Positions 48,125 through 64,000 of a DNA stretch of 64,000 bases are shown in pieces. Both the position numbers and the translations under genes were made by a program. Source of the stretch: Candidatus Latescibacterota bacterium. GTDB lineage: Bacteria > Krumholzibacteriota > Krumholzibacteriia > WVZY01 > JAKEHA01. Below the pieces are notes generated by a model. That model was not told where the DNA came from, did not search any database, and saw only the letters and a list, made by a program, of their open reading frames with translations. Location: the NCBI GenBank assembly GCA_963707635.1, contig OY970173.1, forward strand, positions 448,001 to 512,000, given 5' to 3'. The first letter of the stretch is position 1. Each line of letters starts with the position of its first letter.

Positions 48125-50074
48125 GTGACGCCGGGGTGGCTTCTTCTCGGCGCGGCGGGGTGTGCGGTGGTGGCGGTGTTGGGCGCCCGACAGGCGCCGC
48201 GGCTGTGGCTCGCCGCCTCGATGGGTGCCGCTGCCGCCGCGCTGGCCGCTTCGGTGTGGGTCCTCGTCTCCGGCGAGCCGTGCGACGCGCGCTTCGCGTT
48301 CGCGTTGGGCGGAGAGCCGCTGCACCTGCGGCTGGATGGAGTGGGCGCGTTCTTTCTCGCGCTGCTGGCGCTGGTCGGGGGCGCGTGCACCCTGTATTCG
48401 CAAGGGTACTGGAAGGACGATCAGCACCCCGCTTCCGCGCCGTCGGGGCGGGCCTGGTCGAGCGTGCTGCTCGTCAGCATGAGCCTGGTCCTGCTCGTCA
48501 CCAACGGACTCCATTTCCTCGTTGCGTGGGAACTGTTTTCCGTCAGCGCATACTTCATGATCACGCGCGAGCGTCAGCGTCGCGAGGTTCGATCGGCGGG
48601 ATGGTTGTTTCTAGCCGCGTCGCACGCGGGCACGCTGTGCCTGTTCGCCTTCTTCGCGGGGCTGGCCGCGCGCACCGGCAGCTGGGAGCTGGGCCCGATG
48701 CACGACCATCCGGAGCTCGCGCCGTGGTTCTGGCTCGCCCTCTGCGGTTTCGGCCTCAAGGCGGGCGTGTTCCCGCTCCACATCTGGCTGCCGTCCGCGC
48801 ACGCCAACGCGCCGAGCCATGTGTCCGCCATCCTGTCCGGGGTTGCCATCAAGATGGGGATCTTCGGACTGATTCGCTTCAGCGGCTGGTTGCCGACGCC
48901 CGCCGCCGCGGGCTGGGTGATCGCCGCGCTGGGGGCAACGAGCGCCGTGCTGGGGGTGGCGTTCGCGCTCGGCCAGCACGATCTAAAGCGTCTCCTCGCC
49001 TACCACAGCGTTGAAAACATCGGCATCATTCTGATCGGGCTCGGATTCGCGATCGTTTCTTCCGCGCACGGCGACGAGACCTGGGGGCGGCTGGCGCTGG
49101 CCGGCGGCCTCCTGCACGTGTGGAACCACGGCCTGTTCAAGGCCCTGCTGTTTCTGGGGGCGGGGTCGGTGCTCCACACCACCGGGACGCGCGAGATGAG
49201 CCGGCTGGGTGGGCTCTGGCGCACCATGCCCTGGACGGCGGGGATGTTCGCGCTGGGCGCGATCGCCATCGTCGGATTGCCTCCTTTGAACGGATTCGTG
49301 AGCGAGTGGCTCGTGTACCTGGGTCTGTTCGGCGCAACCTCGGCTCACGGGCCGCTGGCGTGGGCGGCGGTCCCGGCCGCGATTCTCCTGGGTGTGACCG
49401 GCGCGCTGGCGCTGGCATGCTTCGCGAAAGTGTGCGGGGTGGTGTTTCTCGGCGTGCCACGCAGCGAAGCCGCCGCGCGCTCGCACGAGAGCGGGTGGCT
49501 CATGCGCGCGCCGATGCTCGGATTGAGCGCCGCATGCGTGGCCATCGGCCTGGCGCCCGCGTTCTTCTGGCCGCTGGTGGCGCGCGCCGCTTCCGCGTGG
49601 CAACCGGCGTGGGTGGATTCTCCCGCGCCGGTGTCGCTGGTGGCACTCGGACGGTTCCACGTCGCCCTGGCGGTGCTGGCGGTGCTCGGCGCCGGCGGCC
49701 TCTGGCTCCGGGTCAGGCGCACCGGCGTCGTTCGCGCCCTGACGTGGGACTGCGGCTACGCCGCGCCGAGCGCGCGCATGCAGTACACCGCCGGTTCGTT
49801 CGCGGCGACGATCACGGGATGGTTCGCGTGGATCCTTCGGCCGCAGCGCGACGCGGAGCCGCCGACAGGAGCATTCCCGGCGCGCTCACGTTTCGACCAA
49901 CACACGCCGGAGACCATTCTCGAGCGGGTTGTCGAGCCCGCGGGTTCGATCGTCATGCGCGCGGCCGTGGGGGCGCGCAAGCTCCAGCACGGCCGGATCC
50001 AGGCGTACATTCTATATGTGCTGATCGGCGTGGTGGGTGTGGCACTGCTCGCGGTCATCGGGAGGGATCGATGA
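48125..50074 (+). CDS. HyfB-like antiporter-type membrane subunit (Ehr complex)
   Basis: FLVAWE, GLKAGVFPLHIWLPSAH..APSHVSA.LSG, LKRLLAYHSVENIG, NHGLFK, GLPPLNGFVSEW, TWDCGY, MQYT. Confidence 0.9.
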   Translation: MTPGWLLLGAAGCAVVAVLGARQAPRLWLAASMGAAAAALAASVWVLVSGEPCDARFAFALGGEPLHLRLDGVGAFFLALLALVGGACTLYSQGYWKDDQHPASAPSGRAWSSVLLVSMSLVLLVTNGLHFLVAWELFSVSAYFMITRERQRREVRSAGWLFLAASHAGTLCLFAFFAGLAARTGSWELGPMHDHPELAPWFWLALCGFGLKAGVFPLHIWLPSAHANAPSHVSAILSGVAIKMGIFGLIRFSGWLPTPAAAGWVIAALGATSAVLGVAFALGQHDLKRLLAYHSVENIGIILIGLGFAIVSSAHGDETWGRLALAGGLLHVWNHGLFKALLFLGAGSVLHTTGTREMSRLGGLWRTMPWTAGMFALGAIAIVGLPPLNGFVSEWLVYLGLFGATSAHGPLAWAAVPAAILLGVTGALALACFAKVCGVVFLGVPRSEAAARSHESGWLMRAPMLGLSAACVAIGLAPAFFWPLVARAASAWQPAWVDSPAPVSLVALGRFHVALAVLAVLGAGGLWLRVRRTGVVRALTWDCGYAAPSARMQYTAGSFAATITGWFAWILRPQRDAEPPTGAFPARSRFDQHTPETILERVVEPAGSIVMRAAVGARKLQHGRIQAYILYVLIGVVGVALLAVIGRDR

Positions 50075-50979
50075 ACTCGGTGATCCACCTGTTGATCGGT
50101 GTGGTGGGGTGGCTGGTGTTCGCACCGCTCATTCCCGGCGTGATCAACCGGGTGAAGGCGTGGGTCGCCGGCCGCAAGGGCCCTCCGCTGCTGCAGCTCT
50201 ATTACGACCTCGCGCGGCTGTGGCGCAAACAGGTGGTGTTGAGCACCACGGTTTCGCCCTTCCATGTCGCCGGCCCGGCGGTCGCGTTCGTGTCGATCCT
50301 GGGCGCGGCGCTGCTCCTTCCCATCGGACGGGCGGGTGCCCCGCTCTCGTTCGAAGGCGACGCGGTGTTGTTCGTGTACCTGCTCGCGCTGGCCCGTTTC
50401 TGCATGGCCGGCGCGGCGCTGGATACCGGCTCGGCTTTCGAGGGGATGGGCGCGGTTCGAGAGGTCAGCTACGCGGTCCTGGCCGAGGCGGCCGTCATCA
50501 CGGCCCTGCTCGTGCTCGGCGTCCAGACCGGCAGCGTGTCGTTGACGCGGATGCTCGCGCCGGCGGCGGGTCCGGGGACGGCGCTGCTCGCGGCCGGGTT
50601 GTTCATGGTGCTCCTCGCCGAGAACTGTCGCGTGCCCTTCGACGACCCCAACACGCACCTCGAGCTGACCATGGTCCACGAAGCGATGGTGCTCGACCAC
50701 AGCGGTCCGCCGCTGGCGGTGATCCTGCACGGAGCCGCGCTGAAACTCCTCGTGTTCTGCGTGCTGCTCACCGAAGCCGTTGTGCCGCTGGGCAACGTGT
50801 CACCCGTGCTGGTGGCGGCGGCGCTGATTGCCTCCGTGCTCGTCACGGCGGCCGGCGTGGGACTGGTGGAGTCGCTCCAGGCACGCGTGGCGTTTCGCCG
50901 CGTGCCCTTGCTTCTCACGACCGCATTCCTTCTGTGTCTCTTTGCACTCATGATCGCGTGGGAAAGGAATCCGCTGTGA
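50071..50979 (+). CDS. HyfC/NuoH-like membrane subunit (Ehr complex)
   Basis: GRKGPPLLQ.YYDL.RL, LDTGSAFEGMG, AENCRVPFDDPNTHLELTMVHEAM; ATGA overlap. Confidence 0.9.
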   Translation: MNSVIHLLIGVVGWLVFAPLIPGVINRVKAWVAGRKGPPLLQLYYDLARLWRKQVVLSTTVSPFHVAGPAVAFVSILGAALLLPIGRAGAPLSFEGDAVLFVYLLALARFCMAGAALDTGSAFEGMGAVREVSYAVLAEAAVITALLVLGVQTGSVSLTRMLAPAAGPGTALLAAGLFMVLLAENCRVPFDDPNTHLELTMVHEAMVLDHSGPPLAVILHGAALKLLVFCVLLTEAVVPLGNVSPVLVAAALIASVLVTAAGVGLVESLQARVAFRRVPLLLTTAFLLCLFALMIAWERNPL

Positions 50980-51617
50980 CCGATGCCATGAACCTGCTCG
51001 TCGGGCTCGCGATGGGGTTGAACCTCGTCGGGCTGGCGAGCAGCCGCCTGACCTCGCTCATCCAGGCGGCGGCGGTGCAGGGGATGGTGCTGGGCATCCT
51101 CCCCTTGCTCCTCGGCCACGGAGCCAGCTGGTGGGTGGTACTGGTCGCGGTGGCGACCGTGGTCGTGAAGGGATTCGTGATGCCGGCGCTCCTGCGCAGG
51201 GCGTTGCGCTCGGCGCACATCGACCGCGAAGTGCAGCCGCTGATTCCATTCGTGCCGTCGCTCCTGCTCGGAGCGGCGGCGACGGTCGGGACGGTGGCGC
51301 TCAGCCGCGCGCTGCCGCTGCGACCCGAGCACGCCCACCTGCTGCTCGTGCCGGGCGCGTTTGCCACCGTGGTGTCCGGCCTCCTCCTGCTGATGGGTCG
51401 CGCGAAAGCGATCGCGCAGGTGTGCGGGTACCTGATGCTGGAAAACGGGATCTACATGTTCGGCCTCCTGCTCATCGGTTCCACCCCGCTCCTGGTCGAA
51501 GCGGGGATTCTGCTCGACCTCACCGTGGCCGTATTCGTGGTCGGTATCATCGTGGACCGCATCCAGCGCGAGTTCGACACGCTCGACACCCGCAAGCTCA
51601 CGGCGTTGCACGAATGA
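50976..51617 (+). CDS. HyfE-like membrane subunit (Ehr complex)
   Basis: VKG.VMP.LL, Q..GYLMLENGI, LVEAGILLD; GTGA overlap. Confidence 0.85.
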   Translation: MTDAMNLLVGLAMGLNLVGLASSRLTSLIQAAAVQGMVLGILPLLLGHGASWWVVLVAVATVVVKGFVMPALLRRALRSAHIDREVQPLIPFVPSLLLGAAATVGTVALSRALPLRPEHAHLLLVPGAFATVVSGLLLLMGRAKAIAQVCGYLMLENGIYMFGLLLIGSTPLLVEAGILLDLTVAVFVVGIIVDRIQREFDTLDTRKLTALHE

Positions 51618-53053
51618 TCGAGATCGCCCTGGTTGCGGTTCCTCTGTTGCTGGCCGCCGTGGCGGCCGCCTGGACGTCGGAACGAACCCGGCCGTGGCTG
51701 CTGCCGGCGGGCGGTCTCGTCCACACGGCGTTGGTGTGGCGACTGCTGCTGGGCCCTTCGTCGGAGCCGGTCAGCGCGTGGTTCGGTTTCGACGCCCTCG
51801 CGCGCGCCGTGTTGCCGATGATCTCGATTCTGTTTCTCGTGTGCTCGGCATACGGGGTGGCGTACCTGCGGATCCGTATCGAACGATCCAATCGGGTCTT
51901 CGTCGCCACCCTGCTCGCCCTGCTCGCGCTGTTGAGCCTCGCGGTCCAGGCCCAGCAACTCAGCCTGCTCTGGATCGGGGCGGAAGCCGCCACCCTGCTG
52001 ACGGTCCCGCTCCTGCACTTCAACCGCACCGCCCGCGCGATCGAGGCCACGTGGAAATACCTGATTGTCGGAGGCACGGGCATCGCGCTGTCGCTGCTCG
52101 GATCGTTTTGTCTCGGCTATGCGTCGCTGCACGGCGGCGGCAGCGGCGACCTCACGTTCGCCGCGCTGGCGAACCAGGGGCCGTCTCTGTCGCGCCCGTG
52201 GCTGGTGGCCGCGTGGGTGTTGCTGCTCGTAGGATACGGCACCAAGATGGGACTCGCGCCGATGCACACGTGGAAGCCGGACGCGTACGGCGAGGCGCCG
52301 GGCATCGTCGGCGCGTTGCTGGCGGGAGGCATGACGACCATGGCGTTCGTCGCTGTGCTGCGGGTCAAGCAGGTCGTCGACGCCGCCGGCGCGGGCGTGA
52401 TGGCGGAGCGCACGCTCCTCGCGCTCGGCCTCTTCTCGATGGTGCTGGCCGCGTTGTTCTTGTTGAGCACGCGGGATTTCAAGCGCATGCTCGCCTACTC
52501 GAGCATCGAGCACATGGGTATTCTGGCGGTGGGCGCCTCGCTCGGGACCGCCGGACTATCGGCGGCGCTGTTTCATGTGTGGAACAACGGGCTGACCAAG
52601 GGGGCGCTCTTCTTGAGCGCGGGAAATATCCGCCGGGCGGCCGGGGCGCGCACGACGGACACGGTGGCCGGGATGGTGTGGCGGGCGCCGATTTCCGCGC
52701 GGGTGTGGGTGGTGGGGATGTTCGCGATCACGGCCACGCCGCCGTTCGGCCCCTTCTTCAGCGAAATACGTATCGTGCGCAGCGCGCTGGAGGGCGGCCA
52801 CGGGATGACGGTGGTGGTGTTCCTCGCCTGCCTGCTGATCGCGTTTCTCGGTCTCACGCGGCTGATGCTCGCCGTGGTCGACGGACGTCCGCGAACGGCG
52901 GCGCGGGCCGAGGGCGCGCGCGGCGAAACGCCCGGCGTCATCATCCCGCCCCTCCTGTTTCTGGGCTTTTCACTCTGGCTCGGGCTCGCCGCGCCGTCCG
53001 TGCTGCGCCAGTCGTGGAACGCGGCGGCCGCGTTCCTGCACCCGGGACGATGA
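51614..53053 (+). CDS. HyfF-like antiporter-type membrane subunit (Ehr complex)
   Basis: EATWKY, GYGTKMGLAPMHTWKPDAY.EAP, KRMLAYSSIEHMG, PPFGPFFSE. Confidence 0.9.
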   Translation: MIEIALVAVPLLLAAVAAAWTSERTRPWLLPAGGLVHTALVWRLLLGPSSEPVSAWFGFDALARAVLPMISILFLVCSAYGVAYLRIRIERSNRVFVATLLALLALLSLAVQAQQLSLLWIGAEAATLLTVPLLHFNRTARAIEATWKYLIVGGTGIALSLLGSFCLGYASLHGGGSGDLTFAALANQGPSLSRPWLVAAWVLLLVGYGTKMGLAPMHTWKPDAYGEAPGIVGALLAGGMTTMAFVAVLRVKQVVDAAGAGVMAERTLLALGLFSMVLAALFLLSTRDFKRMLAYSSIEHMGILAVGASLGTAGLSAALFHVWNNGLTKGALFLSAGNIRRAAGARTTDTVAGMVWRAPISARVWVVGMFAITATPPFGPFFSEIRIVRSALEGGHGMTVVVFLACLLIAFLGLTRLMLAVVDGRPRTAARAEGARGETPGVIIPPLLFLGFSLWLGLAAPSVLRQSWNAAAAFLHPGR

Positions 53054-54531
53054 ATCCACTACGCGCATTCGCGGGCCTGGAAAACGGCGGAAGCCTCTCC
53101 TGGAAAGACGTTCCCGAGTGGCGACTCGACGATTTTCTCGCCGCGGCCGGCCGCGAGCTGGATCGCGGCGCGCGGCTGTGCGCGCTGTTCGGGGTTCCGG
53201 AGGGAGCGGCGACGCGGCTGGTGGCGGTGGTGGCGTTCGACGAAGACAGCACGCTGGCGGTGGGGCGGAGCGAGCCGATCACGCGCGGGTATCCGTCGCT
53301 CACGCCGCGCTACCCGCAGGCACACCTCTTCGAGCGCGAAGTGTGGGAACAGCACGCGCTCGTTCCCGACGGCCATCCGTGGCTCAAACCGGTTCGGCTG
53401 GACCACGGCAAGGGCCCGGGGGTCGGCGAGTTCTTCCGGGTGGAAGGGCACGAGGTGCACGAGGTCGCCGTCGGACCGGTGCACGCCGGTATCATCGAGC
53501 CCGGCCACTTCCGATTTCAATGTCATGGCGAGGAGGTGCTCCACCTCGAGATCGCGCTGGGCTTCCAGCACCGCGGGATCGAGGAGGCACTGGCCGGCGG
53601 CCCGCACCGCGCGACGATGAGTCAGATGGAAACGATCGCGGGGGACACCACCATCGCCCACGCGACCGCCTACGCGACCGTGCTCGAGGCGCTCGCGGGC
53701 GTGGAAGCGCCGCCGCGGGCGCAGTGGCTGCGCGCGGTGGCGCTCGAGCTGGAGCGGTTGGCCAATCACACCGGGGACCTCGGCGCGCTGGCCAACGACG
53801 TGGCGTTTCTTCCGACCGCGGCCGCGTGCGGCCGCATCCGCGGGGACTTCCTGAACCTCACCGCGCTGATGTGCGGGAGTCGTTTCGGACGCGGGCTCGT
53901 GCGCCCCGGCGGATCTCGCTTCGACCTGGAACCCGAGCGGGTCTCGCTCATGCGGGAGCCGCTGCGCGTGGCGGTCGCCGAGGCGGACGAAGCGGCGTCG
54001 TGGCTCTGGGAAGCGAACTCGGTGCGCGCACGCTTCGAAGGCACCGGAGTGGTGAGCGTCGAACAGGCGGAAACGATGGGGCTGGTAGGACCGGCCGCGC
54101 GTGCATCGGGCCTCGTGCGCGATGTCCGCTTCGATCATCCGGTCGGCTGGCATCGCGCCGCGCCGATTCCCGTGGCGGTCTGGCCCGGCGGCGACGTGTT
54201 CGCCCGCGCGCGCGTGCGCTGGCTGGAGGTGCAACGCTCCGGCCGCTTTCTGGCGGAGCAGCTCTCGTCCGCCCCGGCGGGGGACCTTCGAGTCCGCATG
54301 CCCGACCTCGCGACCGACGCGCTCGCGATCGCGCTGGTCGAAGGATGGCGCGGCGAAGTCTGTCATACGGCGATCACCGACGGGGCGGGGCGCCTGCGCC
54401 GCTACAAGATCGTGGATCCGTCCTTCCATAACTGGACGGCGCTCGCCCTGGCGATGCGCGCCCAGGCGATCTCGGACTTCCCGTTGTGCAACAAGAGTTT
54501 CAACCTTTCATATTGCGGGTTCGACCTCTAG
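53050..54531 (+). CDS. HycE/NuoCD-like large subunit lacking Ni-ligating cysteines (EhrL-type)
   Basis: FEREVWEQ, VGPVHAGIIEPGHFRF, LELERLANH, VEGWRG, DPSF.NW; L1 region ETIAGDTTIAH and L2 region KSFNLSYCG lack CxxC. Confidence 0.88.
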   Translation: MNPLRAFAGLENGGSLSWKDVPEWRLDDFLAAAGRELDRGARLCALFGVPEGAATRLVAVVAFDEDSTLAVGRSEPITRGYPSLTPRYPQAHLFEREVWEQHALVPDGHPWLKPVRLDHGKGPGVGEFFRVEGHEVHEVAVGPVHAGIIEPGHFRFQCHGEEVLHLEIALGFQHRGIEEALAGGPHRATMSQMETIAGDTTIAHATAYATVLEALAGVEAPPRAQWLRAVALELERLANHTGDLGALANDVAFLPTAAACGRIRGDFLNLTALMCGSRFGRGLVRPGGSRFDLEPERVSLMREPLRVAVAEADEAASWLWEANSVRARFEGTGVVSVEQAETMGLVGPAARASGLVRDVRFDHPVGWHRAAPIPVAVWPGGDVFARARVRWLEVQRSGRFLAEQLSSAPAGDLRVRMPDLATDALAIALVEGWRGEVCHTAITDGAGRLRRYKIVDPSFHNWTALALAMRAQAISDFPLCNKSFNLSYCGFDL

Positions 54532-54533
54532 CC

Positions 54534-55331
54534 ATGTTCATCCTGGATACCATCGCGCGTCGAATGCGGCACGGCTGCCGCACCATGCAGTATCCCGATG
54601 GTCCCCCGCCGGCGCTGCCGGACCGGCACGGGGGCGCGCTGCGCGTGGATCCCTCCCGGTGTGTGGAGGGGTGCACCGCGTGCGTGCCGGTGTGTCCCAC
54701 CCGCGCCATCACGCGCTCGCCGGGCGGGCAGGTCGTGCTCGACCTCGGTCGCTGTCTGTTCTGCTCCGCGTGCGTCGAAGCATGTCCGACCCAGGCCATC
54801 ACCCACACCGGCGACCACCGCATCGCCGCGACCCGGCGCGACGACCTGCTGCTCGGCGAATCCGGCGCTGAAGTGCGCCTCGCAATCGCGCTGGACGAAA
54901 AGCTGCGCGGGCTCTTCGGCCGTTCGCTGCGGCTGCGCCAGGTCTGCGCCGGCGGATGCAACGGGTGCGAAGCAGACACCAACGTGCTCAACACGATCGG
55001 CTGGGATCTGGGACGATTCGGCATCCAGTTCGTGGCCTCTCCGCGCCACGCGGACGGGCTGCTGGTGACCGGCCCGGTTTCGAGAAACATGCAGCTGGCG
55101 CTGGAGAAGACCTACGCCGCCGTGCCGGCTCCGAAGATCGTCATCGCGGTCGGCGCGTGCGCGATCGCCGGCGGTCCTTTCGTCGACCACCCGGAAGTCT
55201 CCAACGGCGCGGCGAGTGTCGTGCCGGTCGACCTCTTCATCGCCGGCTGCCCGCCGCATCCGCTCACGATTCTCGACGGCCTCCTGCGCCTGATCGGCCG
55301 GCTGGACGAAAGCCGCTGGACGGCGCGGTGA
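54534..55331 (+). CDS. Ferredoxin (2x[4Fe-4S]) fused to NuoB/HyfI-like small subunit (EhrS-type)
   Basis: CVEGCTACVPVCP, CLFCSACVEACP, GGCNGCE, SPRHAD, VGAC, GCPP. Confidence 0.88.
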   Translation: MFILDTIARRMRHGCRTMQYPDGPPPALPDRHGGALRVDPSRCVEGCTACVPVCPTRAITRSPGGQVVLDLGRCLFCSACVEACPTQAITHTGDHRIAATRRDDLLLGESGAEVRLAIALDEKLRGLFGRSLRLRQVCAGGCNGCEADTNVLNTIGWDLGRFGIQFVASPRHADGLLVTGPVSRNMQLALEKTYAAVPAPKIVIAVGACAIAGGPFVDHPEVSNGAASVVPVDLFIAGCPPHPLTILDGLLRLIGRLDESRWTAR

Positions 55332-55381: not shown

Positions 55382-56483
55382 ATGCTGGACGTTATCCGGG
55401 CGAAGGTCGAACGGGGCGAGCGCATCTCGCGCGCGGAAGGCCTGTTTCTCCTGCAGGAAGCGCCCCTCCTTGAGCTGGCCCCGCTCGCGATGTCGCGGCG
55501 CTACCAGCACAACCCCGCACCAAGGGTGACCTTCGTCGTCGACACCAATCTCAATTATACGAACGTTTGCGACGCCTTCTGCACGTTTTGCGCGTTCTAT
55601 CGCACGCCGGGGCAGGAGGGCGAGTACACCTATTCGATCGAACAGATGATGGCCCAGTTCGCGCGCGCGCGCGAGATGGGCTGCACGACGGTGCTGCTCC
55701 AGGGTGGGCTCAACCGCGACATCCCGTTCGACTATTACCTCGACCTGGTGCGCGAAACCCGGCGGAGGTTTCCGGACATCCACCCGCATTTCTATTCCGC
55801 GCCCGAGGTCATGAAGATGACCGAGGTGTCGGGCCTGCCGCTCGACGGCGGTCATGGCCCGTCTCCACGACGCCGGGCTGCGCTCGATTCCCGGGGGCGG
55901 CGCCGAGATTCTCTCCGACCGGGTGAAGCAGCACATCTCGAAGGTGTGGCCCAAGGCGACCACGCAGGACTGGGTCGACGTGCACCGCGCCGCACACCGC
56001 GCCGGCATCCGTTCCACGGCCACGATGATGTATGGGCACGTCGAGACCGACGACGACGTCGTCGACCACCTGGAGCAGGTGCGCGCGCTACAGGATGAAA
56101 CGCGCGGGTTCACCGCGTTCGTTCCCTGGAGCTACAAGCGCGACCAGAATCCGCTCGCGCGCAAGGTGAAGACCGAGGCGGGGCCGAACCGCTACCTGCG
56201 GATCATCGCGGTGTCGCGCATCTACCTCGACAACTTTGCGCACGTGCAGGCGTCGTGGTTCTCGGAGGGGAAGAAGACCGGGGTGGTGGCGCTCCACTTC
56301 GGCGGCGATGATTTCGGCGGCACCATCTTCGACGAAAACGTGATGCAGGAAGCCGGTTTCTTCAACCGGACGACCGTGGACGAGATCGTGGCGTTGATTC
56401 GCGACGCGGGGTTTCGGCCGGCGCAGCGATCCACGCTCTACGAAATCGTGCGTGAGTTTCCGGAGGCCGTCTCCGTCGCATGA
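55382..56483 (+). pseudogene. mqnC: Cyclic dehypoxanthine futalosine synthase MqnC, interrupted by a single +1 frameshift at ~55847 (pseudogene or sequence error)
   Basis: First frame: NYTNVCDAFCTFCAFYR, LLQGG. Second frame: PGGGAEILS, TATMMYGHVE, AFVPW, HVQASW, GGDDFGGT, PAQRSTLY. Removing one G from GAC-G-GCG-GTC-ATG joins them. Confidence 0.85.
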
Positions 56484-58312: not shown

Positions 58313-58732
58313 ATGCGCGGCGGCCGATGGATCCGCGCGGGCGCCATCGGGCTCCTGATCGTGGCAGCGCTCCACGCCGTGGGGCATTTCAGCGGCGGCC
58401 CCCCCGACCCCGCCGCAGCCGCACTCGAGAGATCCATGCGCGACTACCACTACGAGATCATGGGCATGCACCCCAGCGCGCACGACATCACCCAGTCGCT
58501 GAGCCTCACCATGACCGTGCTGCTGCTGTTCGCGGGCACGATCGACCTCGCGCTGTTCGGCGCGGTCGCGACCAACCCACGGGCGATGCGGCGACTGGCG
58601 TTTATCAACGTCCTCGGGGTCGCCGCGCTGGTCGCGGTGTTTGCATACTATCGCATTCCTCCGCCGTTCGTCACGCTCGCCATCGTCGGCGTGCTTTTCA
58701 CGATTGGTCTTGCGCGTACGCCGAAGACGTAG
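58313..58732 (+). CDS. Hypothetical membrane protein
   Basis: Four hydrophobic segments; adjacent co-directional ORF. Confidence 0.65.
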   Translation: MRGGRWIRAGAIGLLIVAALHAVGHFSGGPPDPAAAALERSMRDYHYEIMGMHPSAHDITQSLSLTMTVLLLFAGTIDLALFGAVATNPRAMRRLAFINVLGVAALVAVFAYYRIPPPFVTLAIVGVLFTIGLARTPKT

Positions 58733-58744
58733 GGAAATTCCGAA

Positions 58745-58773
58745 TTGGCAGCACCGGGAGCGCATGATAGTAT
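58745..58773 (+). promoter_or_regulatory. Sigma70-type promoter, probably leaderless
   Basis: TTGGCA-17bp-TAGTAT with TGn extension, 6 nt before ATG 58780. Confidence 0.65.
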
Positions 58774-58779
58774 CGAGCC

Positions 58780-59793
58780 ATGAAGGCGGAGACGGATGTC
58801 ATGACCGGCCGGACCACGAGCGCGTTGAACACCCCCGTTACTTCGTTTCTCCGTCACCACTTTCGCCATTTCAACGCAGCCGCCCTGATCGACGCGGCCG
58901 ACGCGTACCGGCGCCACCTCGACGGCGGCGGCAAGATGCTGGTGACGATCGCGGGGGCGATGAGCACGGCGGAACTCGGGATCTCGCTCGCGGAGATGAT
59001 CCGGCGCGGCAAAATTCACGCCATTTCGTGCACCGGCGCGAATCTGGAAGAAGACCTCTACAATCTCATTGCACACGACTTCTACGAGCGCATCCCTCAT
59101 TATCGGGATCTCACTCCCAACGACGAGAAGGCGCTGCTGCAACGGCACCTGAATCGGGTCACCGACACCTGTATTCCGGAAGAAGAGGCCATGCGCAGAC
59201 TCGAGGCCGCGGTGATGGAAGAATGGAAGCGCGCCGACAGCAAGGGTGAGCGCTACTTCCCGCACGAGTTCCTCTTCAAGGTCGTCCGTTCCGGCGCCCT
59301 CAAGAAGCACTATCAGATCGACCCGAAGGATTCGTGGATCGTGGCCGCGGCGGAGAAGAACCTGCCGATGGTGGTCCCGGGCTGGGAGGATTCCACGCTG
59401 GGCAACATGTTCGCGGCATCGTGCATCCGCGGCGACGTGAAACCGTCCGCGATGCGCTCGGGTATCGAGTACATGGTCGACCTGGCGAACTGGTACACGT
59501 CGACCGCGTCCACGGCGTCGATCGGCTTTTTCCAGCTCGGCGGCGGGATCGCGGGCGATTTCCCCATCTGCGTGGTGCCCATGATTCACCAGGACCTCCG
59601 CCGCGAGACCCGGGTGTGGGGCTATTTCTGTCAGATCAGCGATTCGACCACGAGCTACGGCTCCTATTCGGGGGCGGTCCCCAACGAGAAGATCACGTGG
59701 GGCAAGCTCGAAGTCGACACGCCTCGCTTCGTCATTGAATCCGACGCCACCATCGTCGCGCCCCTGATTTTCGCGATCGTTCTGGACTGGTAA
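58780..59793 (+). CDS. Deoxyhypusine synthase-like protein (polyamine metabolism)
   Basis: AGAMSTAELG, CTGANLEED, NRVTD, EDSTLG, GGGIAGDF, GSYSGA.PNEKITWGK, ESDATIVAP. Confidence 0.9.
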   Translation: MKAETDVMTGRTTSALNTPVTSFLRHHFRHFNAAALIDAADAYRRHLDGGGKMLVTIAGAMSTAELGISLAEMIRRGKIHAISCTGANLEEDLYNLIAHDFYERIPHYRDLTPNDEKALLQRHLNRVTDTCIPEEEAMRRLEAAVMEEWKRADSKGERYFPHEFLFKVVRSGALKKHYQIDPKDSWIVAAAEKNLPMVVPGWEDSTLGNMFAASCIRGDVKPSAMRSGIEYMVDLANWYTSTASTASIGFFQLGGGIAGDFPICVVPMIHQDLRRETRVWGYFCQISDSTTSYGSYSGAVPNEKITWGKLEVDTPRFVIESDATIVAPLIFAIVLDW

Positions 59794-59826
59794 GACATCG
59801 TTTGAATCGGGCCGTGCCACGATTCC

Positions 59827-60243
59827 ATGGCCATCGCTGAAGCACCTCGTTTTCCGCTCGCGGCTATTCTGCTGACGGCGATTCTGGTCGCCGCCCCCGG
59901 TTGCGGGGGCTCCGGCGACCTTCCACTCGACCAGGTGGACCCCGCCGCCGCCCCCGCCGTCCCGACCTACGACCAGGTCTATGCGATCCTGCAACGCGCG
60001 TGCGTGCCCTGCCACAGCGGCGGCGGCGAAGCGCCGGTGACGCAATCGGCCTACTCGCCGCAAGAGGACGGCGAGGATCTGAACCTCGAGAACTGCGTCG
60101 ACATCGTCGCACAGCGCGACGGCATCCTGGAAACGATCGACAACAACACCATGCCCACCGGTGCGCTGCCGCGCCTGACCAGCGTGGAGAAGCTCCTGAT
60201 TCGCCGCTGGGTCGAACAGGGAGCGGTGGCGCCGTGCAACTGA
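59827..60243 (+). CDS. Monoheme c-type cytochrome lipoprotein
   Basis: Lipobox-like AAPGC; CVPCH; distal MP; IRRWVEQGA. Confidence 0.78.
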   Translation: MAIAEAPRFPLAAILLTAILVAAPGCGGSGDLPLDQVDPAAAPAVPTYDQVYAILQRACVPCHSGGGEAPVTQSAYSPQEDGEDLNLENCVDIVAQRDGILETIDNNTMPTGALPRLTSVEKLLIRRWVEQGAVAPCN

Positions 60244-61655
60244 AACGCGCCGCGGTCACCCTCCTGGCGGCGGCGTGGTCGGTGCTCGCGGGTGCCGGCA
60301 ACGGGCACGCGACTCCCATGTACGCCGCCCGGGAAGGCCGCGCGTGCGACAACTGCCACGTGTCACCCAACAAGTGGGAGAACCCGAAACTTTCGAATCG
60401 CAAGTGCAGCATGGCGTGCCAGACGTGCCACGTGGATCCGGCGGGCGGGGGCATGCGAACGGTGACGGGTCACTTCTTCGGCCGGGCCACGCTCCCGATG
60501 ATCGCAATCAGTCCGCGCCCGACCGCCGACTGGGACCGCAACCTCCCGCTGCTCGGCCGGCGCGACCGCGCCACCAGCTACAATTCGAACCTCCCCTATG
60601 GGCCCGCGACGCTGGAGGCGTCGCGCGCGTACCAGGATTCGATCCACGACCTCGCCGCGTGGGGCAAGCCGCGCGGAGAATCGATCCACGAACCGTTCCA
60701 GGGCCGCTACGGCGAGTTGCGCGCCGACCCCGTGCTCCGCATCGGGAGCGACCTTCGCTTCGCCACGCTCTTTTCCAAGTCGACGCTCGCGTTTCCCATG
60801 CAGTTCGACGTCAACGCGATGCTGCACCCGGTGCACCACGCCGCGGGGCTGGTGAACGTCGGCGTCCGCGGTCAATCGAGCGGGTATTCGGCGACGTTCG
60901 ACGACTCGCACACGCCGTACTTTCGCGAGCTGTTCGTCATGACCCACGAGTGGCCCTACCAGGTCTACGCGAAGGTGGGGCGCTTCGTGCCGTCGTACGG
61001 GCTGCGGCTCGACGACCACACCAACCGCATCCGGCGCGAATTCGAGCTGGACGGGTCGCTGCCGGAGTCGCGCGTCACTGGCGTGGAAGTCGGCGCGGCG
61101 CCGAACTATCCGTTCGTGCAGGCGTCGTGGTTTCGCATGAACTCGAAGTACTCGGTCCCGGACGCGTGGGATATCTTCGACCTCGACGACGGCTGGGGCG
61201 CCGCGCTGAATGTCGGCTATCGCGAGTTGGGATGGAGCGTCGGGGCGAGCGCGCTGGCGCGGCGCCGGCCGCTGGACGAGGGCGGCGACACCGATACCTA
61301 TGGCGTCTACGCCGCCTTCAATCCGTGGTTCTATCGGCGGAAGATTCCCCTCACGTTGCAGGGCGAGGTCGACACGGGCACCTACCAGCGCGCGAGTGGC
61401 GCGCAGGCGAATCACCTCGTGTGGTACGGCGAAGTCGACTGGGTGGTGTGGAACGGCGTCAATCTGCTGTTTGCCTACGACTGGGACGATCCCGACCGCG
61501 ACGTGGTGGACGACCACTCGGGGCGCTATCAATTCGGCGTCCAGCTGATTCCGTATCCCGGCGTCACCCTGGACGCGCGCGTGCGCGCATTGGACGTTGC
61601 CACCGCGAGCGGTGACGGCGCGGATCTGTTTGCCCAATTACATTTCTGGTTCTAG
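60234..61655 (+). CDS. Di-heme cytochrome c fused to outer-membrane beta-barrel (Cyc2-like)
   Basis: Signal peptide; ATPMYAAREGRACDNCH and CQTCHVDPAGGGMR; KVGRF.PSYG; amphipathic strands; terminal QLHFWF. Confidence 0.75.
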   Translation: MQLKRAAVTLLAAAWSVLAGAGNGHATPMYAAREGRACDNCHVSPNKWENPKLSNRKCSMACQTCHVDPAGGGMRTVTGHFFGRATLPMIAISPRPTADWDRNLPLLGRRDRATSYNSNLPYGPATLEASRAYQDSIHDLAAWGKPRGESIHEPFQGRYGELRADPVLRIGSDLRFATLFSKSTLAFPMQFDVNAMLHPVHHAAGLVNVGVRGQSSGYSATFDDSHTPYFRELFVMTHEWPYQVYAKVGRFVPSYGLRLDDHTNRIRREFELDGSLPESRVTGVEVGAAPNYPFVQASWFRMNSKYSVPDAWDIFDLDDGWGAALNVGYRELGWSVGASALARRRPLDEGGDTDTYGVYAAFNPWFYRRKIPLTLQGEVDTGTYQRASGAQANHLVWYGEVDWVVWNGVNLLFAYDWDDPDRDVVDDHSGRYQFGVQLIPYPGVTLDARVRALDVATASGDGADLFAQLHFWF

Positions 61656-61729
61656 GGGCGCATTATGTTGCGACTGATGCGCGGGCGATGCTACGGTTAT
61701 CCCGCGGATCTCAACCCCGTGGAGGAATC

Positions 61730-62401
61730 ATGAAAACATTGACGGTATCGGCACTGGTTATTGTAATCGCGGCCCCGTTCTGGAGCTGTTCGTCCATGAA
61801 CAACGCGCAGAAGGGTGCCGTGGGGGGTGCGGCAGCCGGCGGCACGATGGGCGCGATAATCGGGCACCAGTCCGGCAACACCGCGGTGGGTGCCATTATC
61901 GGCGCCGCGATCGGCGGTGCCGCGGGGGCCTACATCGGCAACTATATGGACAAGCAGGCGGCCGAAATGGAGCGCGACCTGGAGGGTGCCACGGTCGAGC
62001 GCGTCGGCGAAGGCATCAAGATCACTTTCGACTCGGGACTGTTTTTCGACGTGAACAAGGCCGAGCTCAAGCAGGCCAGCCGGGACAACCTCACGAAGCT
62101 GGCGACGATTCTCAACAAGTATCCGGACACCAATATCCTGCTCGAGGGGCACACCGACTCGGACGGTTCGGAAGAATGGAACCTGGAGTTGTCCCGGCTG
62201 CGCGCGCAGTCGGTCTCCAATTTCTTGGCGGCGCAACAGGTCCAGGAGCCGCGTTTCACCATCATGGGGTACGGCGAGGCGCAGCCCGTCGCGAGCAACG
62301 ACACCAGGCAGGGCAAGGCGCAGAATCGTCGTGTCGAAGTCGCGATCTATGCCAACGACAAGTTGAAGAAGACGGCGGAGAAGAAGGCGCAGGCGGGCTA
62401 G
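61730..62401 (+). CDS. OmpA-family lipoprotein with glycine zipper
   Basis: Gly-zipper, YMDKQA.E, GHTDSDG, N.ELS..RA.SV, GYGE.QP, NRRVE; RBS GGAGG. Confidence 0.92.
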   Translation: MKTLTVSALVIVIAAPFWSCSSMNNAQKGAVGGAAAGGTMGAIIGHQSGNTAVGAIIGAAIGGAAGAYIGNYMDKQAAEMERDLEGATVERVGEGIKITFDSGLFFDVNKAELKQASRDNLTKLATILNKYPDTNILLEGHTDSDGSEEWNLELSRLRAQSVSNFLAAQQVQEPRFTIMGYGEAQPVASNDTRQGKAQNRRVEVAIYANDKLKKTAEKKAQAG

Positions 62402-62423
62402 CCAGTCGCATGCGCAGGATCGG

Positions 62424-63074
62424 ATGACGAGAGTGACCGCCCACGAGGCTATCGAACGCACCGCCCGCGAGGTGCTCGCGGACGGTGTGTTTCTTTGTGT
62501 GCGACTCGGATCCGGTGTGCCGTTGGTCGAGGCGTGTCGCGCGGCCGTCCGCGGTGGACTCTCGCTGCTCGAAATCACACTCACCACACCGGGAGCGTTT
62601 CGCGCCATCGAGACGATGGCGAAGGAGGACGGCGTCATCGCGGGTGGCGGGACGGTGCTCACGCCCGAAGACGCACGCCGCGTAGCGGAAGCCGGAGGGC
62701 GCTTCGCGCTTTCGCCCGTGTTTGATCCCGGCGTCGTCGACGAGGCGCACCGGCTGGGGCTACTGGCCGTTCCCGGCACGTCGACACCCACGGAGATTCT
62801 CACCGCGCACCGTCACGGTGCCCGCCTCGTGAAGGTTTTTCCGGCGGCGGCCCTCGGCGGAGCCGCTTACATCCGCGCGGTACGCGGGCCGCTTCCCGAC
62901 ATTCCCCTGGTGCCGACCAACGGGATCACGGCGGAGACGATCGCGGACTACGTTGCCGCCGGAGCGGTGGCGGTCGGAGTCGGCGGCGAGGTCTTCCCGC
63001 CGAACTTCACGCTGGACCACGTCGAAGCCGCCTCACGCCGGATCCGACTCGCGATGGACGCGGCTCGCAAGTAG
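62424..63074 (+). CDS. eda: KDPG/KHG aldolase family protein
   Basis: LEITLTTP, GTVL, FALSP, PG..TPTEI, VKVFPA...GG..YI, P.PDIPLVPT.G. Confidence 0.8.
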   Translation: MTRVTAHEAIERTAREVLADGVFLCVRLGSGVPLVEACRAAVRGGLSLLEITLTTPGAFRAIETMAKEDGVIAGGGTVLTPEDARRVAEAGGRFALSPVFDPGVVDEAHRLGLLAVPGTSTPTEILTAHRHGARLVKVFPAAALGGAAYIRAVRGPLPDIPLVPTNGITAETIADYVAAGAVAVGVGGEVFPPNFTLDHVEAASRRIRLAMDAARK

Positions 63075-63080
63075 CCGCTG

Positions 63081-63269
63081 TCACGCCGGCTTCACGTCTT
63101 CCGGCGGTTCGACCCTCTGCTTGAGAGGTCCTCGGCGCTTGCGCAGCGCCTCGCGCAGCAGGTACTCGATCTGGCCGTTGAGGCTCCGCAGGTCGTCCTT
63201 GGCCCAGCGGTTGAGCTCGTCGAGCAACTCCTCCGGAAGCCTCACCAGATACGATTTTCTCCCGGGCAT
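63081..63269 (-). CDS. Arc-like ribbon-helix-helix DNA-binding protein
   Basis: RKSYLVRL.......L.RWA.DDLRSLNGQIEYLL; directly downstream of SPFH gene. Confidence 0.8.
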   Translation of the reverse strand: MPGRKSYLVRLPEELLDELNRWAKDDLRSLNGQIEYLLREALRKRRGPLKQRVEPPEDVKPA

Positions 63270-63283
63270 TCTCGCTCACGACC

Positions 63284-64000
63284 CTACTGATAGAGCGTTC
63301 CGGTGTTGACGACGGGTTGTGCGGCCTTGTCGCCGCAGAGAACCACCAGCAGATTGCTGACCATGATGGCTTTCTTCTCGTCGTCGAGCTTGACGGTCGC
63401 GTGTCGTTCCAGGCGCTCGAGCGCCATCTCCACCATGCCGACGGCTCCGTCGACAATTCTGGTGCGCGCCGCCACGATGGCTTCCGCCTGCTGGCGCTGC
63501 AGCATCGCCGACGCGATTTCCGGCGCATAAGCGAGATGGCTCAAGCGCGCTTCGTCGATGTGAACGCCGGCCTTGCCCACGCGTTCCTGGAGTTCCTTCG
63601 TCAACGCCTGGGAGACCTCGTCCATGCTGCCGCGCAGGGACGTCTGGCCGTCTTCGGTCGTGTCGTACGGGTAGGCGCTCGCCAGGTGGCGAACGGCCGA
63701 TTCGCTCTGAATGGTGACGTAGTGCACGAACTCATCCACGTCGAAGACCGCCTGTGCGGTATCGACCACGCGCCACACGATGACGACCGCGATCTCGATG
63801 GGATTGCCGCGGGAATCGTTCACCTTGATCTTTTCCGTGTTCAGGTTGCGCGCGCGCAGCGACACGCGGGATTTTACGAAGAACGGATTCGCCCAGTTGA
63901 AGCCATTGGTCTTGGCGGTCCCGGCATACTTGCCGAAGAGCGTCAGTACCGCGGCCATGTTGGGCTGCAGCGTGAAGAACCCGCCGAGCAGCGCCCCCCA
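63284..64000 (-). CDS. SPFH/band-7 domain protein (5' end outside window)
   Basis: [44 protein letters not shown]; frame open to window edge. Confidence 0.88.

Follow-up and report, generated by a model that had tools for sequence, protein, structure and literature searches.

A 64,000-nucleotide (nt) window of contig OY970173.1 (positions 448,001 to 512,000 of the forward strand; assembly GCA_963707635.1), from a Candidatus Latescibacterota bacterium, contains two overlapping genes for a predicted lipoprotein cytochrome c and a diheme cytochrome-porin, in which a segment with two CxxCH heme motifs precedes a predicted β-barrel. We consider the pair to be a real and conserved variant of the known Cyc2 design, with a function that is predicted from sequence and structural models. 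We put the chances at about even that the barrel protein and its partner form a two-protein conduit carrying electrons inward from a small dissolved reductant, for which a metal ion, for instance Fe(II), is the leading candidate.

A predicted diheme cytochrome-porin encoded beside a predicted cytochrome

The first-pass annotation of the window, made from the sequence alone, had claimed a compact electron-transfer module made up of a lipoprotein cytochrome, a diheme Cyc2-like porin and an OmpA lipoprotein. The three genes do lie in that order (Table 1): the cytochrome and barrel genes overlap by 10 nt, and the product of the third scores 239 bits against the NCBIfam model YiaD_Gzip_OmpA (NF053611; cut-off 175). 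GTG 60234 was chosen as the start of the barrel gene because full-length homologs align across 100% of the 473 residues, and a GGGAG sequence is found 10 nt 5' of it. The mature barrel protein opens TPMYAAREGRACDNCH, followed after a 19-residue spacer by CQTCHVDPAGGG, and its last residue is F. The second CxxCH is thus where it was claimed to be; when the protein was shuffled 200,000 times, no shuffle had two such motifs and 256 had one. The upstream gene likewise encodes a Cys after a hydrophobic leader, a CVPCH and then a TMP. Scans against Pfam and NCBIfam gave no family above cut-off for either the barrel protein or the partner, and a promoter and terminator scan of 58400-63300 gave no more than chance would: a single terminator-like site, and a single promoter-like site ahead of a deoxyhypusine-synthase-like gene.

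The AlphaFold2 model of the barrel protein, built from a 116-row alignment (pLDDT, the predicted local distance difference test, 87.1; predicted template modelling score, pTM, 0.87), has 16 strands over residues 142-446 and an N-terminal part that is mostly helix or coil. Foldseek places OprP at the top for the barrel model (E=1.2e-11), and VIA-align, run with residues 1-113 outside the comparison, finds many porins tied at Z 22-23.6, including OprO (4rjw; Z 22.5, root-mean-square deviation 3.0 Å, 295 residues aligned). The β-barrel of the first-pass annotation is accordingly what both the prediction and its nearest folds indicate.

Table 1. Features of the locus in window coordinates; sites in the barrel protein (Cys32, Met163, His236, His444 and others) are given in mature numbering here and throughout
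Feature	Position	Strand	Basis or remark
Predicted lipoprotein monoheme cytochrome c (partner), 138 aa	59827..60243	+	Open reading frame; Cys26 after hydrophobic leader, CVPCH, then TMP
Diheme cytochrome-porin, 473 aa, mature chain 447 aa	60234..61655	+	GTG start 60234, stop at 61655
Predicted signal peptide of barrel protein, residues 1-26	60234-60311	+	Read from sequence
Heme motif 1, CDNCH, mature 12-16	60345..60359	+	No counterpart in monoheme relatives
Cys32, four residues ahead of heme motif 2	60405..60407	+	Candidate distal thiolate ligand or additional link to heme 1
Heme motif 2, CQTCH, mature 36-40, then VDPAGGGxR	60417..60431	+	Core motif common to monoheme relatives
Predicted 16-stranded β-barrel, mature 142-447	60735..61652	+	AlphaFold2 model
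Met163 (FPMQ, strand 2)	60798..60800	+	Candidate heme or metal ligand by conservation
Asp234-Asp235-His236, loop after strand 5	61011..61019	+	Candidate metal site by conservation
His444, last strand	61641..61643	+	Candidate heme ligand, lumen-facing by polar/hydrophobic column alternation
YiaD-family glycine-zipper/OmpA lipoprotein, 223 aa	61730..62401	+	NF053611; adjoins, outside the module

The diheme branch and its monoheme relatives

A protein search returned 212 homologs, of which 120 were listed (55-92% identity). Both CxxCH motifs are present in all 116 listed homologs with an intact N-terminus, the other four starting after the heme region, and the spacer between the motifs counts 19 residues in 82 and 18 in 34 of them. 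The aromatic terminus noted by the first-pass annotation holds for the window protein but is a poor family mark, since F is kept in 55 of the 120 listed homologs while W at -2 (104/120) and H at -4 (114/120) are conserved. A profile search of 1.84 billion representatives gave 1,070 matches at E<=0.001 and 488 at 1e-10; 81 of the 150 listed matches, all 50%-representatives, were usable by length and N-terminus, comprising 63 diheme and 18 monoheme proteins. Across 79 genome loci the diheme hosts are Krumholzibacteriia, Latescibacterota, Eisenbacteria, Gemmatimonadota, Acidobacteriota, Myxococcota and Deltaproteobacteria, and the monoheme hosts Ignavibacteriota, Bacteroidota, Marinimicrobia/Fidelibacterota, Chlorobiota and Nitrospirota. 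The nearest Atlas clusters lack names and are most frequent in Myxococcota and Bdellovibrionota.

The alignments and tree comprise 47 diheme and 28 monoheme rows, with truncated rows (L023, L046, L052, L057, L058, L064) and loci largely from the same genomes as L021-L051 (L002-L020) excluded. Heme motif 1 is unvarying across the close-homolog alignment, occurs in 47/47 diheme rows and is a gap in 28/28 monoheme rows; motif 2 occurs in 75/75. Two distant diheme members, P0200 and P0210, have Cx3CH as their first motif and retain Cys32. Diheme and monoheme profiles match at 100% in hhalign (E=8e-71, 319 columns), starting at motif 2, and the first 22 diheme residues give a separate, weak alignment to the monoheme N-terminus (E=0.32). 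Because the profiles align from the second motif onward, motif 2 with VDPxGGGxR represents the shared core. The first-pass annotation had placed the Cyc2-type heme at the first CxxCH, but the motif common to the monoheme relatives is the second. The addition, judged from these alignments, is a stretch of ~24 residues holding motif 1, and we read the barrel protein as the diheme branch of an unnamed family with monoheme members.

A quick unrooted tree of the 75 rows, computed from the part of each sequence that follows the last heme motif, puts the 47 diheme rows on one side of a branch (Shimodaira–Hasegawa-like approximate likelihood ratio test, SH-aLRT, 89). A single origin of the extra heme is therefore compatible with the tree and may be what happened, although the missing root and the fact that the branch is not starred count against leaning on it. 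A monoheme ancestor would have acquired the extra heme when a short N-terminal stretch was duplicated or inserted.

The monoheme CxxCH-VNPxGGG cytochrome-porins keep Met163, His236 and His444 and have a small cytochrome or cupredoxin as neighbour; they differ in lacking motif 1, Cys32 and Trp22 and are ~100 residues shorter than the diheme form. No Pfam or NCBIfam family covers those that were scanned. The host genome, a 3.2 Mb assembly in one contig, 96% complete and, to judge by the names of the closest homologs, probably that of a Krumholzibacteriia member, itself encodes such a monoheme paralog at 106534-107670, within a minus-strand stretch (105936-108434; L100) where an Ig-domain/cytochrome lipoprotein-like gene, the gene of this paralog and a YceI gene follow one another. 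Nitrospirota monoheme relatives (L067, L071, L072, L074-L077, L082) carry a His/Met-rich insert at the place of the extra heme; one of them belongs to Troglogloeales, an order that includes the manganese oxidiser Ca. Manganitrophus.

If motif 1 were not a heme site, its cysteines could belong to a group of five that hold Zn or an iron–sulfur (Fe-S) cluster, leaving the protein monoheme or heme-free. Cys32-x3-Cys36-x2-Cys39 reproduces the CxxxCxxC spacing of radical S-adenosylmethionine (SAM) proteins, and the Cx3CH of P0200 and P0210 departs from a heme motif. We nonetheless hold this to be extremely unlikely: His16 is invariant together with Cys12 and Cys15 (63/63 listed diheme representatives), motif 2 is the sole CxxCH of the monoheme relatives, and the 36 listed homologs without Cys32 retain both CxxCH. 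The protein has no Radical_SAM Pfam match at E<=1 and its model is a porin, its leader is without a twin-arginine pattern, and Sec is not known to export Fe-S proteins. The solved diheme segment of OmhA, whose spacer likewise has 19 residues, gives a weak alignment with it as well.

The partner cytochrome and its neighbourhood

The codon of the lipid-anchor Cys26 of the partner lies at 59902, the CxxCH at 60001-60015 and the candidate distal Met at 60151-60153. Among 34 aligned close partners C34, C37, H38, C65, M84 and C112 (mature numbering) are invariant, a pattern that suits a class I cytochrome c with His/Met ligation and a candidate disulfide between the two Cys outside the CxxCH. Against Pfam the partner gives weak cytochrome c matches under the cut-off, and none to PF07635 (Planctomycete cytochrome C) at E<=1; Atlas neighbours carry Cytochrome_CBB3/PSCyt1, and the partners at loci L086 and L066 pass PF07635 with 34.5 and 36.2 bits (cut-off 22). 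The structure model is helical (pLDDT 78.6) and finds nothing at E<=0.001 in Foldseek, the weak rows being mostly class I cytochromes c.

A CxxCH gene is directly adjacent to the barrel gene in each of the 48 evaluable diheme loci (of 50; at least 390 nt upstream), which belong to several phyla, 44 times upstream and four times downstream, a count that overstates the number of independent cases because the loci are kin. The same adjacency rule holds at 336 of 20,000 random positions in the host genome (1.7%). The adjacency persists across the tree even though the type of partner changes, from single-domain to tandem-domain and Ig-fused cytochromes and one unrelated diheme protein (L061). Monoheme loci are paired too: a small cytochrome neighbours 14 of 27 barrel genes (15 by the rule, L094 looking like a shadow frame), and cupredoxins lie downstream in three of the five Nitrospirota monoheme loci whose downstream genes were scanned. 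The partner slot, as these sequences suggest, is one for interchangeable one-electron carriers. The cytochrome partner proposed in the first-pass annotation is thus constant beside the diheme form, yet hardly dedicated to it, for the monoheme relatives, including the paralog in the host genome, have partners of their own.

In Myxococcota-type partners (L065, L066, L070, L073, L079, L080) one cytochrome domain is followed in tandem by another, which has a Cx4CH motif (CAFAGCH-like). Marinimicrobia-type monoheme barrels (L093, L095, L096, L098, L099) have a small diheme protein downstream, which in L098 matches the Pfam CytoC_RC model, and four of these five loci also have a monoheme cytochrome upstream.

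Of the 38 diheme loci whose sequence extends 900 nt or more downstream, 8 have the OmpA gene after the barrel gene. In a genome search it occurred in 13 of 14 same-genus loci, the 14th ending at the gene, and 0 of 6 others, two of which are short. Its adjacency is lineage synteny, which bears out the doubt that the first-pass annotation had itself voiced about OmpA as a member of the module. OmpA, the deoxyhypusine-synthase-like gene and an aldolase were each considered as module members and rejected, as none recurs in more than 9 of 79 clustered loci. The diheme pair is a stand-alone two-gene unit amid varying housekeeping genes, the Pfam scan of neighbours having covered 30 of 250 called neighbour open reading frames.

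This isolation, and the patchy occurrence of the unit among relatives, would also suit a porin that is gated by redox state or acts as a sensor, or else a protein for envelope stress, the heme plug gating the pore or detoxifying oxidants with negligible electron flux. No regulator or signalling gene recurs nearby, and the three unrelated types of electron carrier found as partners point to electron flow; we find a gating or sensing role very unlikely.

Candidate ligands and a possible metal site

Met163 and His236 are each present in 75/75 aligned rows and, among the listed representatives, in 63/63 diheme and 16/18 monoheme proteins; His444 is found in 72/75 rows, 56/63 diheme and 16/18 monoheme representatives. 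Asp235 occupies 75/75 aligned rows, and Asp234 is present in 26 of 63 listed distant diheme representatives. The loop after strand 5, in which the acidic pair and His236 lie, we take to be L3, the constriction loop of 16-stranded porins. Met163, His236 and His444 may be heme or metal ligands, as their conservation suggests, and at least two of them may serve a metal site, because a monoheme protein needs one distal ligand.

Cys32 goes with the extra heme: among listed representatives it occurs in 61/63 diheme and 0/18 monoheme proteins, the two exceptions having one His and one Arg, and it is found in 0/27 monoheme loci. The His that replaces it in the diheme member P0214 is in line with a ligand position. 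Among the 116 listed close homologs Cys32 is present in 80 and replaced by R/K in 36, one clade of close relatives, which tells against a ligand role. Each of the 110 diheme rows has Cys32, a His at 172/176 or both (both in 67, just the Cys in 33, just the His in 10). On this pattern Cys32 is a candidate thiolate ligand accompanying the extra heme. The N-terminal amine serves as a heme ligand in cytochrome f; for such a ligand here, the searches of the PDB gave no cytochrome f match and the literature no supporting passage.

The retention of Met163, His236 and His444 even in monoheme members that need one ligand, leaving a Met/His metal site, could also mean that the hemes act on a passing substrate, Cu(II)/Fe(III) or a sulfur oxyanion, in redox-coupled uptake or local catalysis, with the partner recycling the hemes. 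The Nitrospirota insert at the extra-heme position, the cupredoxin neighbours of some of these proteins, the conserved Arg30-Lys31-Cys32 (compare the Arg-Lys-Cys site of TsdA/SoxA) and the anion-selective porin found as top Foldseek fold are all in keeping with this. Cys32, however, is lost in 36/116 listed close homologs, genes for transporters, TonB, copper handling or sulfur are not recurrent neighbours of the diheme loci, and the host genome, 96% complete, has no SoxA/TsdA-family match, so that uptake or catalysis seems to us distinctly unlikely.

Bolder, and in our judgement unlikely, is the proposal that the single 447-residue chain is the smallest multiheme outer-membrane wire, with a His/Met or His/His core heme, a Met/His/Asp metal site and a very-low-potential Cys-thiolate heme on the periplasmic side. 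If true, this arrangement would make it possible for a Cyc2-type scaffold to work outward or both ways.

Proposed path and direction of electron flow

In the inward conduit that we favour, the barrel protein and its partner would be exported by Sec and their hemes attached by the Ccm (cytochrome c maturation) system, so as to give a porin in the outer membrane plugged by its own two-heme cytochrome domain. The substrate would enter the pore, bind Asp235/His236 of loop 3 and reduce the core heme at motif 2, for which Met163 or His444 would be the distal ligand. From there the extra heme, at motif 1, would lengthen the path to the periplasm, with Cys32 as its likely distal ligand, or His172/His176 where Cys32 is lost, and the His/Met partner would take the electron and pass it, for example, to the products of the heme-copper oxidase and alternative-complex-III-like genes. 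Two genes for cytochrome c assembly (PF01578) lie ~25 kb away from the window in the host genome, which also has a heme-copper oxidase gene beside alternative-complex-III-like genes, the latter label being our reading of their sequences.

Several observations weigh against this path or make it less general. The conserved barrel columns include 18 basic beside 25 acidic ones. Further redox genes do not recur widely around the diheme pair, unlike in cyc2-cyc1-rus-cox operons. A match is present in 38 of 61 related genomes, many of them incomplete, and is strong (E<1e-160) in 25. Krumholzibacteriia, Eisenbacteria, Latescibacterota and Myxococcota are not known as metal oxidisers, and a low potential, as is usual for His/Cys hemes, is ill suited to taking up electrons from Fe(II). 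The strict Cyc2 motif AXPXFAR[Q/K][T/Y] is found in 0 of the 116 listed homologs, P-x-Y-A-x-R being the commonest form (62/116). Lastly, the diheme profile matches 61 full-length strict-motif Cyc2 proteins at 34% in hhalign, which is not significant, and at E>7 in a direct hidden Markov model (HMM) comparison; this set, drawn from 120 motif-bearing metagenome loci, is probably not representative of Cyc2 cluster 3. As to potential, a Cyc2 at -130 mV is reported to have oxidised iron in vitro (PMC13692758).

The same components could work in the opposite direction, with the partner delivering electrons through two low-potential hemes to soluble acceptors in the pore such as Fe(III) chelates or humic quinones. 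A Cys-ligated heme 1, the Cys being read from the sequence, would be expected to have a low potential, and the host genome has a barrel-like protein beside multiheme cytochromes and a Rieske/cytochrome b pair. Set against this, class I cytochromes with His/Met ligation, like cupredoxins, usually act as acceptors of high potential. Published reports are found on both sides: a Krumholzibacteria genome is reported to have both reduction and oxidation markers (PMC7914226) and cluster 3 cyc2 is present in iron reducers (PMC7005843), but the characterised proteins of Cyc2 architecture named in PMC13692758, PMC8406198 and PMC13741234 are all iron oxidases. We regard outward flow as rather unlikely.

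The barrel-like protein just mentioned, 529 residues long and exported, belongs to no NCBIfam family and has no MtrB_PioB match, nor has any other protein of the host genome. It lies in a cluster at 2448394-2462531 (L221) that encodes multiheme cytochromes with 6, 10, 9, 13, 19, 4 and 4 CxxCH together with a Rieske protein and a cytochrome b, and that is possibly, from its sequences, a porin-cytochrome complex. Two adjoining multiheme cytochromes with 16 and 20 CxxCH are encoded beside a ferredoxin/oxidoreductase-like gene at 3052013-3057397. Within the window, 48305-55331 holds a six-gene complex-I-like operon (two antiporter-like genes, a NuoH-like gene, a fused 30/49 kDa gene and a fused ferredoxin/20 kDa gene among them), which presumably resembles a group 4 hydrogenase-like complex. 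A MqnC/CofH-like radical SAM gene at 55382-56483 is broken across two frames near 55850 and forms a single frame in the locus of a relative; the split is probably an assembly indel.

Comparison with Cyc2 and other conduits

Cyc2 is defined by a signal peptide, a single CXXCH, the motif AXPXFAR[Q/K][T/Y], a PXL, a 16-stranded OprO/OprP-like barrel and a length of at least 365 residues (PMC8406198). The diheme protein has a predicted signal peptide, an N-terminal CxxCH domain fused to a porin, sufficient length (473 residues) and, by prediction, the 16-stranded OprO/OprP-like barrel. It departs from Cyc2 in its two CXXCH motifs, seen in 116/120 listed homologs, and PXL stands four residues past the heme motif at 1 of the 232 heme sites in 116 listed homologs. 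By the published definition the protein falls outside Cyc2. The first-pass annotation was right that the distance from the mature N-terminus to the first CxxCH equals that in Cyc2, although the residues themselves read P-x-Y-A-A-R and not P-x-F-A-R-[QK]-[TY]. An HMM of the Cyc2 set run on the diheme/monoheme family gives a best E=0.001 over the heme motif alone, which is near noise; the monoheme profile matches the 61 Cyc2 proteins at 94.6% (hhalign, E=7e-8, 139 columns). What remains of the claimed two-heme Cyc2 variant is the architecture and an indirect profile link through the monoheme relatives, without the defining motif, the PXL, the single heme or a significant direct match. The diheme family is probably, by these profiles, a distant homolog of Cyc2, and the sequences that bear the annotation Cyc2 cluster 3 may include some of the monoheme relatives. 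The cyc2 calls reported in a Krumholzibacteria genome (PMC7914226) and in Troglogloeales (PMC9040806) may or may not belong to the family described here. The literature searched, which left subscription journals mostly outside its coverage, contained no description of a two-heme Cyc2-like porin; the supplementary alignment of PMC8406198 may already include two-motif rows.

Cyc2 has been treated as strictly monoheme and hence as acting on dissolved Fe(II) only, with multiheme complexes serving for solids (PMC8406198, PMC9040806); a conserved two-heme branch would be a natural intermediate between the two. The electron acceptor of Cyc2TAG1_1 is still unidentified in the account of PMC13692758, and the partner gene names a candidate for such a role. 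The effect of the extra heme is directly comparable because mono- and diheme forms share one genome. If true, the multiheme-wire proposal above would give an extracellular electron route to Krumholzibacteria, Eisenbacteria, Latescibacterota, Myxococcota and Bdellovibrionota that current markers miss or misread as iron oxidation. Scoring such proteins as iron-oxidation markers in uncultured lineages of soil and sediment calls for a test first.

The nearest match to the two-heme segment in the PDB is OmhA of Carboxydothermus ferrireducens (6QVM), the sole sequence match near significance (E=0.0022 over the signal peptide and both CxxCH), and it is a lead only, because the signal peptide supplies part of the score. 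OmhA likewise has an N-terminal two-heme extension, at an equal distance from the N-terminus and with a 19-residue spacer; it is an 11-heme S-layer cytochrome of a Gram-positive, lacks a barrel, and its spacer contains His and Met but no third Cys. PMC9250108 states that no homolog is known for its two-heme region.

With the characterised Cyc2 proteins (those of A. ferrooxidans, M. ferrooxydans Cyc2PV-1, G. bivora Cyc2TAG1_1 and Leptospirillum Cyt572; PMC8406198, PMC13692758, PMC13741234) the diheme protein shares x-P-x-[FY]-A at the mature N-terminus, and like them it combines an N-terminal heme domain with 16 predicted strands that are nearest to OprP/OprO (PMC8406198). It differs in the VDPxGGGxR after the core heme, the third Cys, the FPMQ, the DH of loop 3, the terminal H-x-W, ~100 extra residues before the barrel and the lipoprotein cytochrome next door. 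Acidic and His residues are conserved in the barrel of the diheme protein; for the Cyc2 of A. ferrooxidans, acidic residues of the lumen are reported to be Fe(II) sites (PMC13741234). MtrAB, MtoAB and PioAB resemble the diheme pair in that a porin and a heme chain cross the outer membrane; they use a separate 26-stranded porin and a decaheme cytochrome (PMC8406198), in contrast to the 16 strands, two fused hemes and monoheme partner predicted here.

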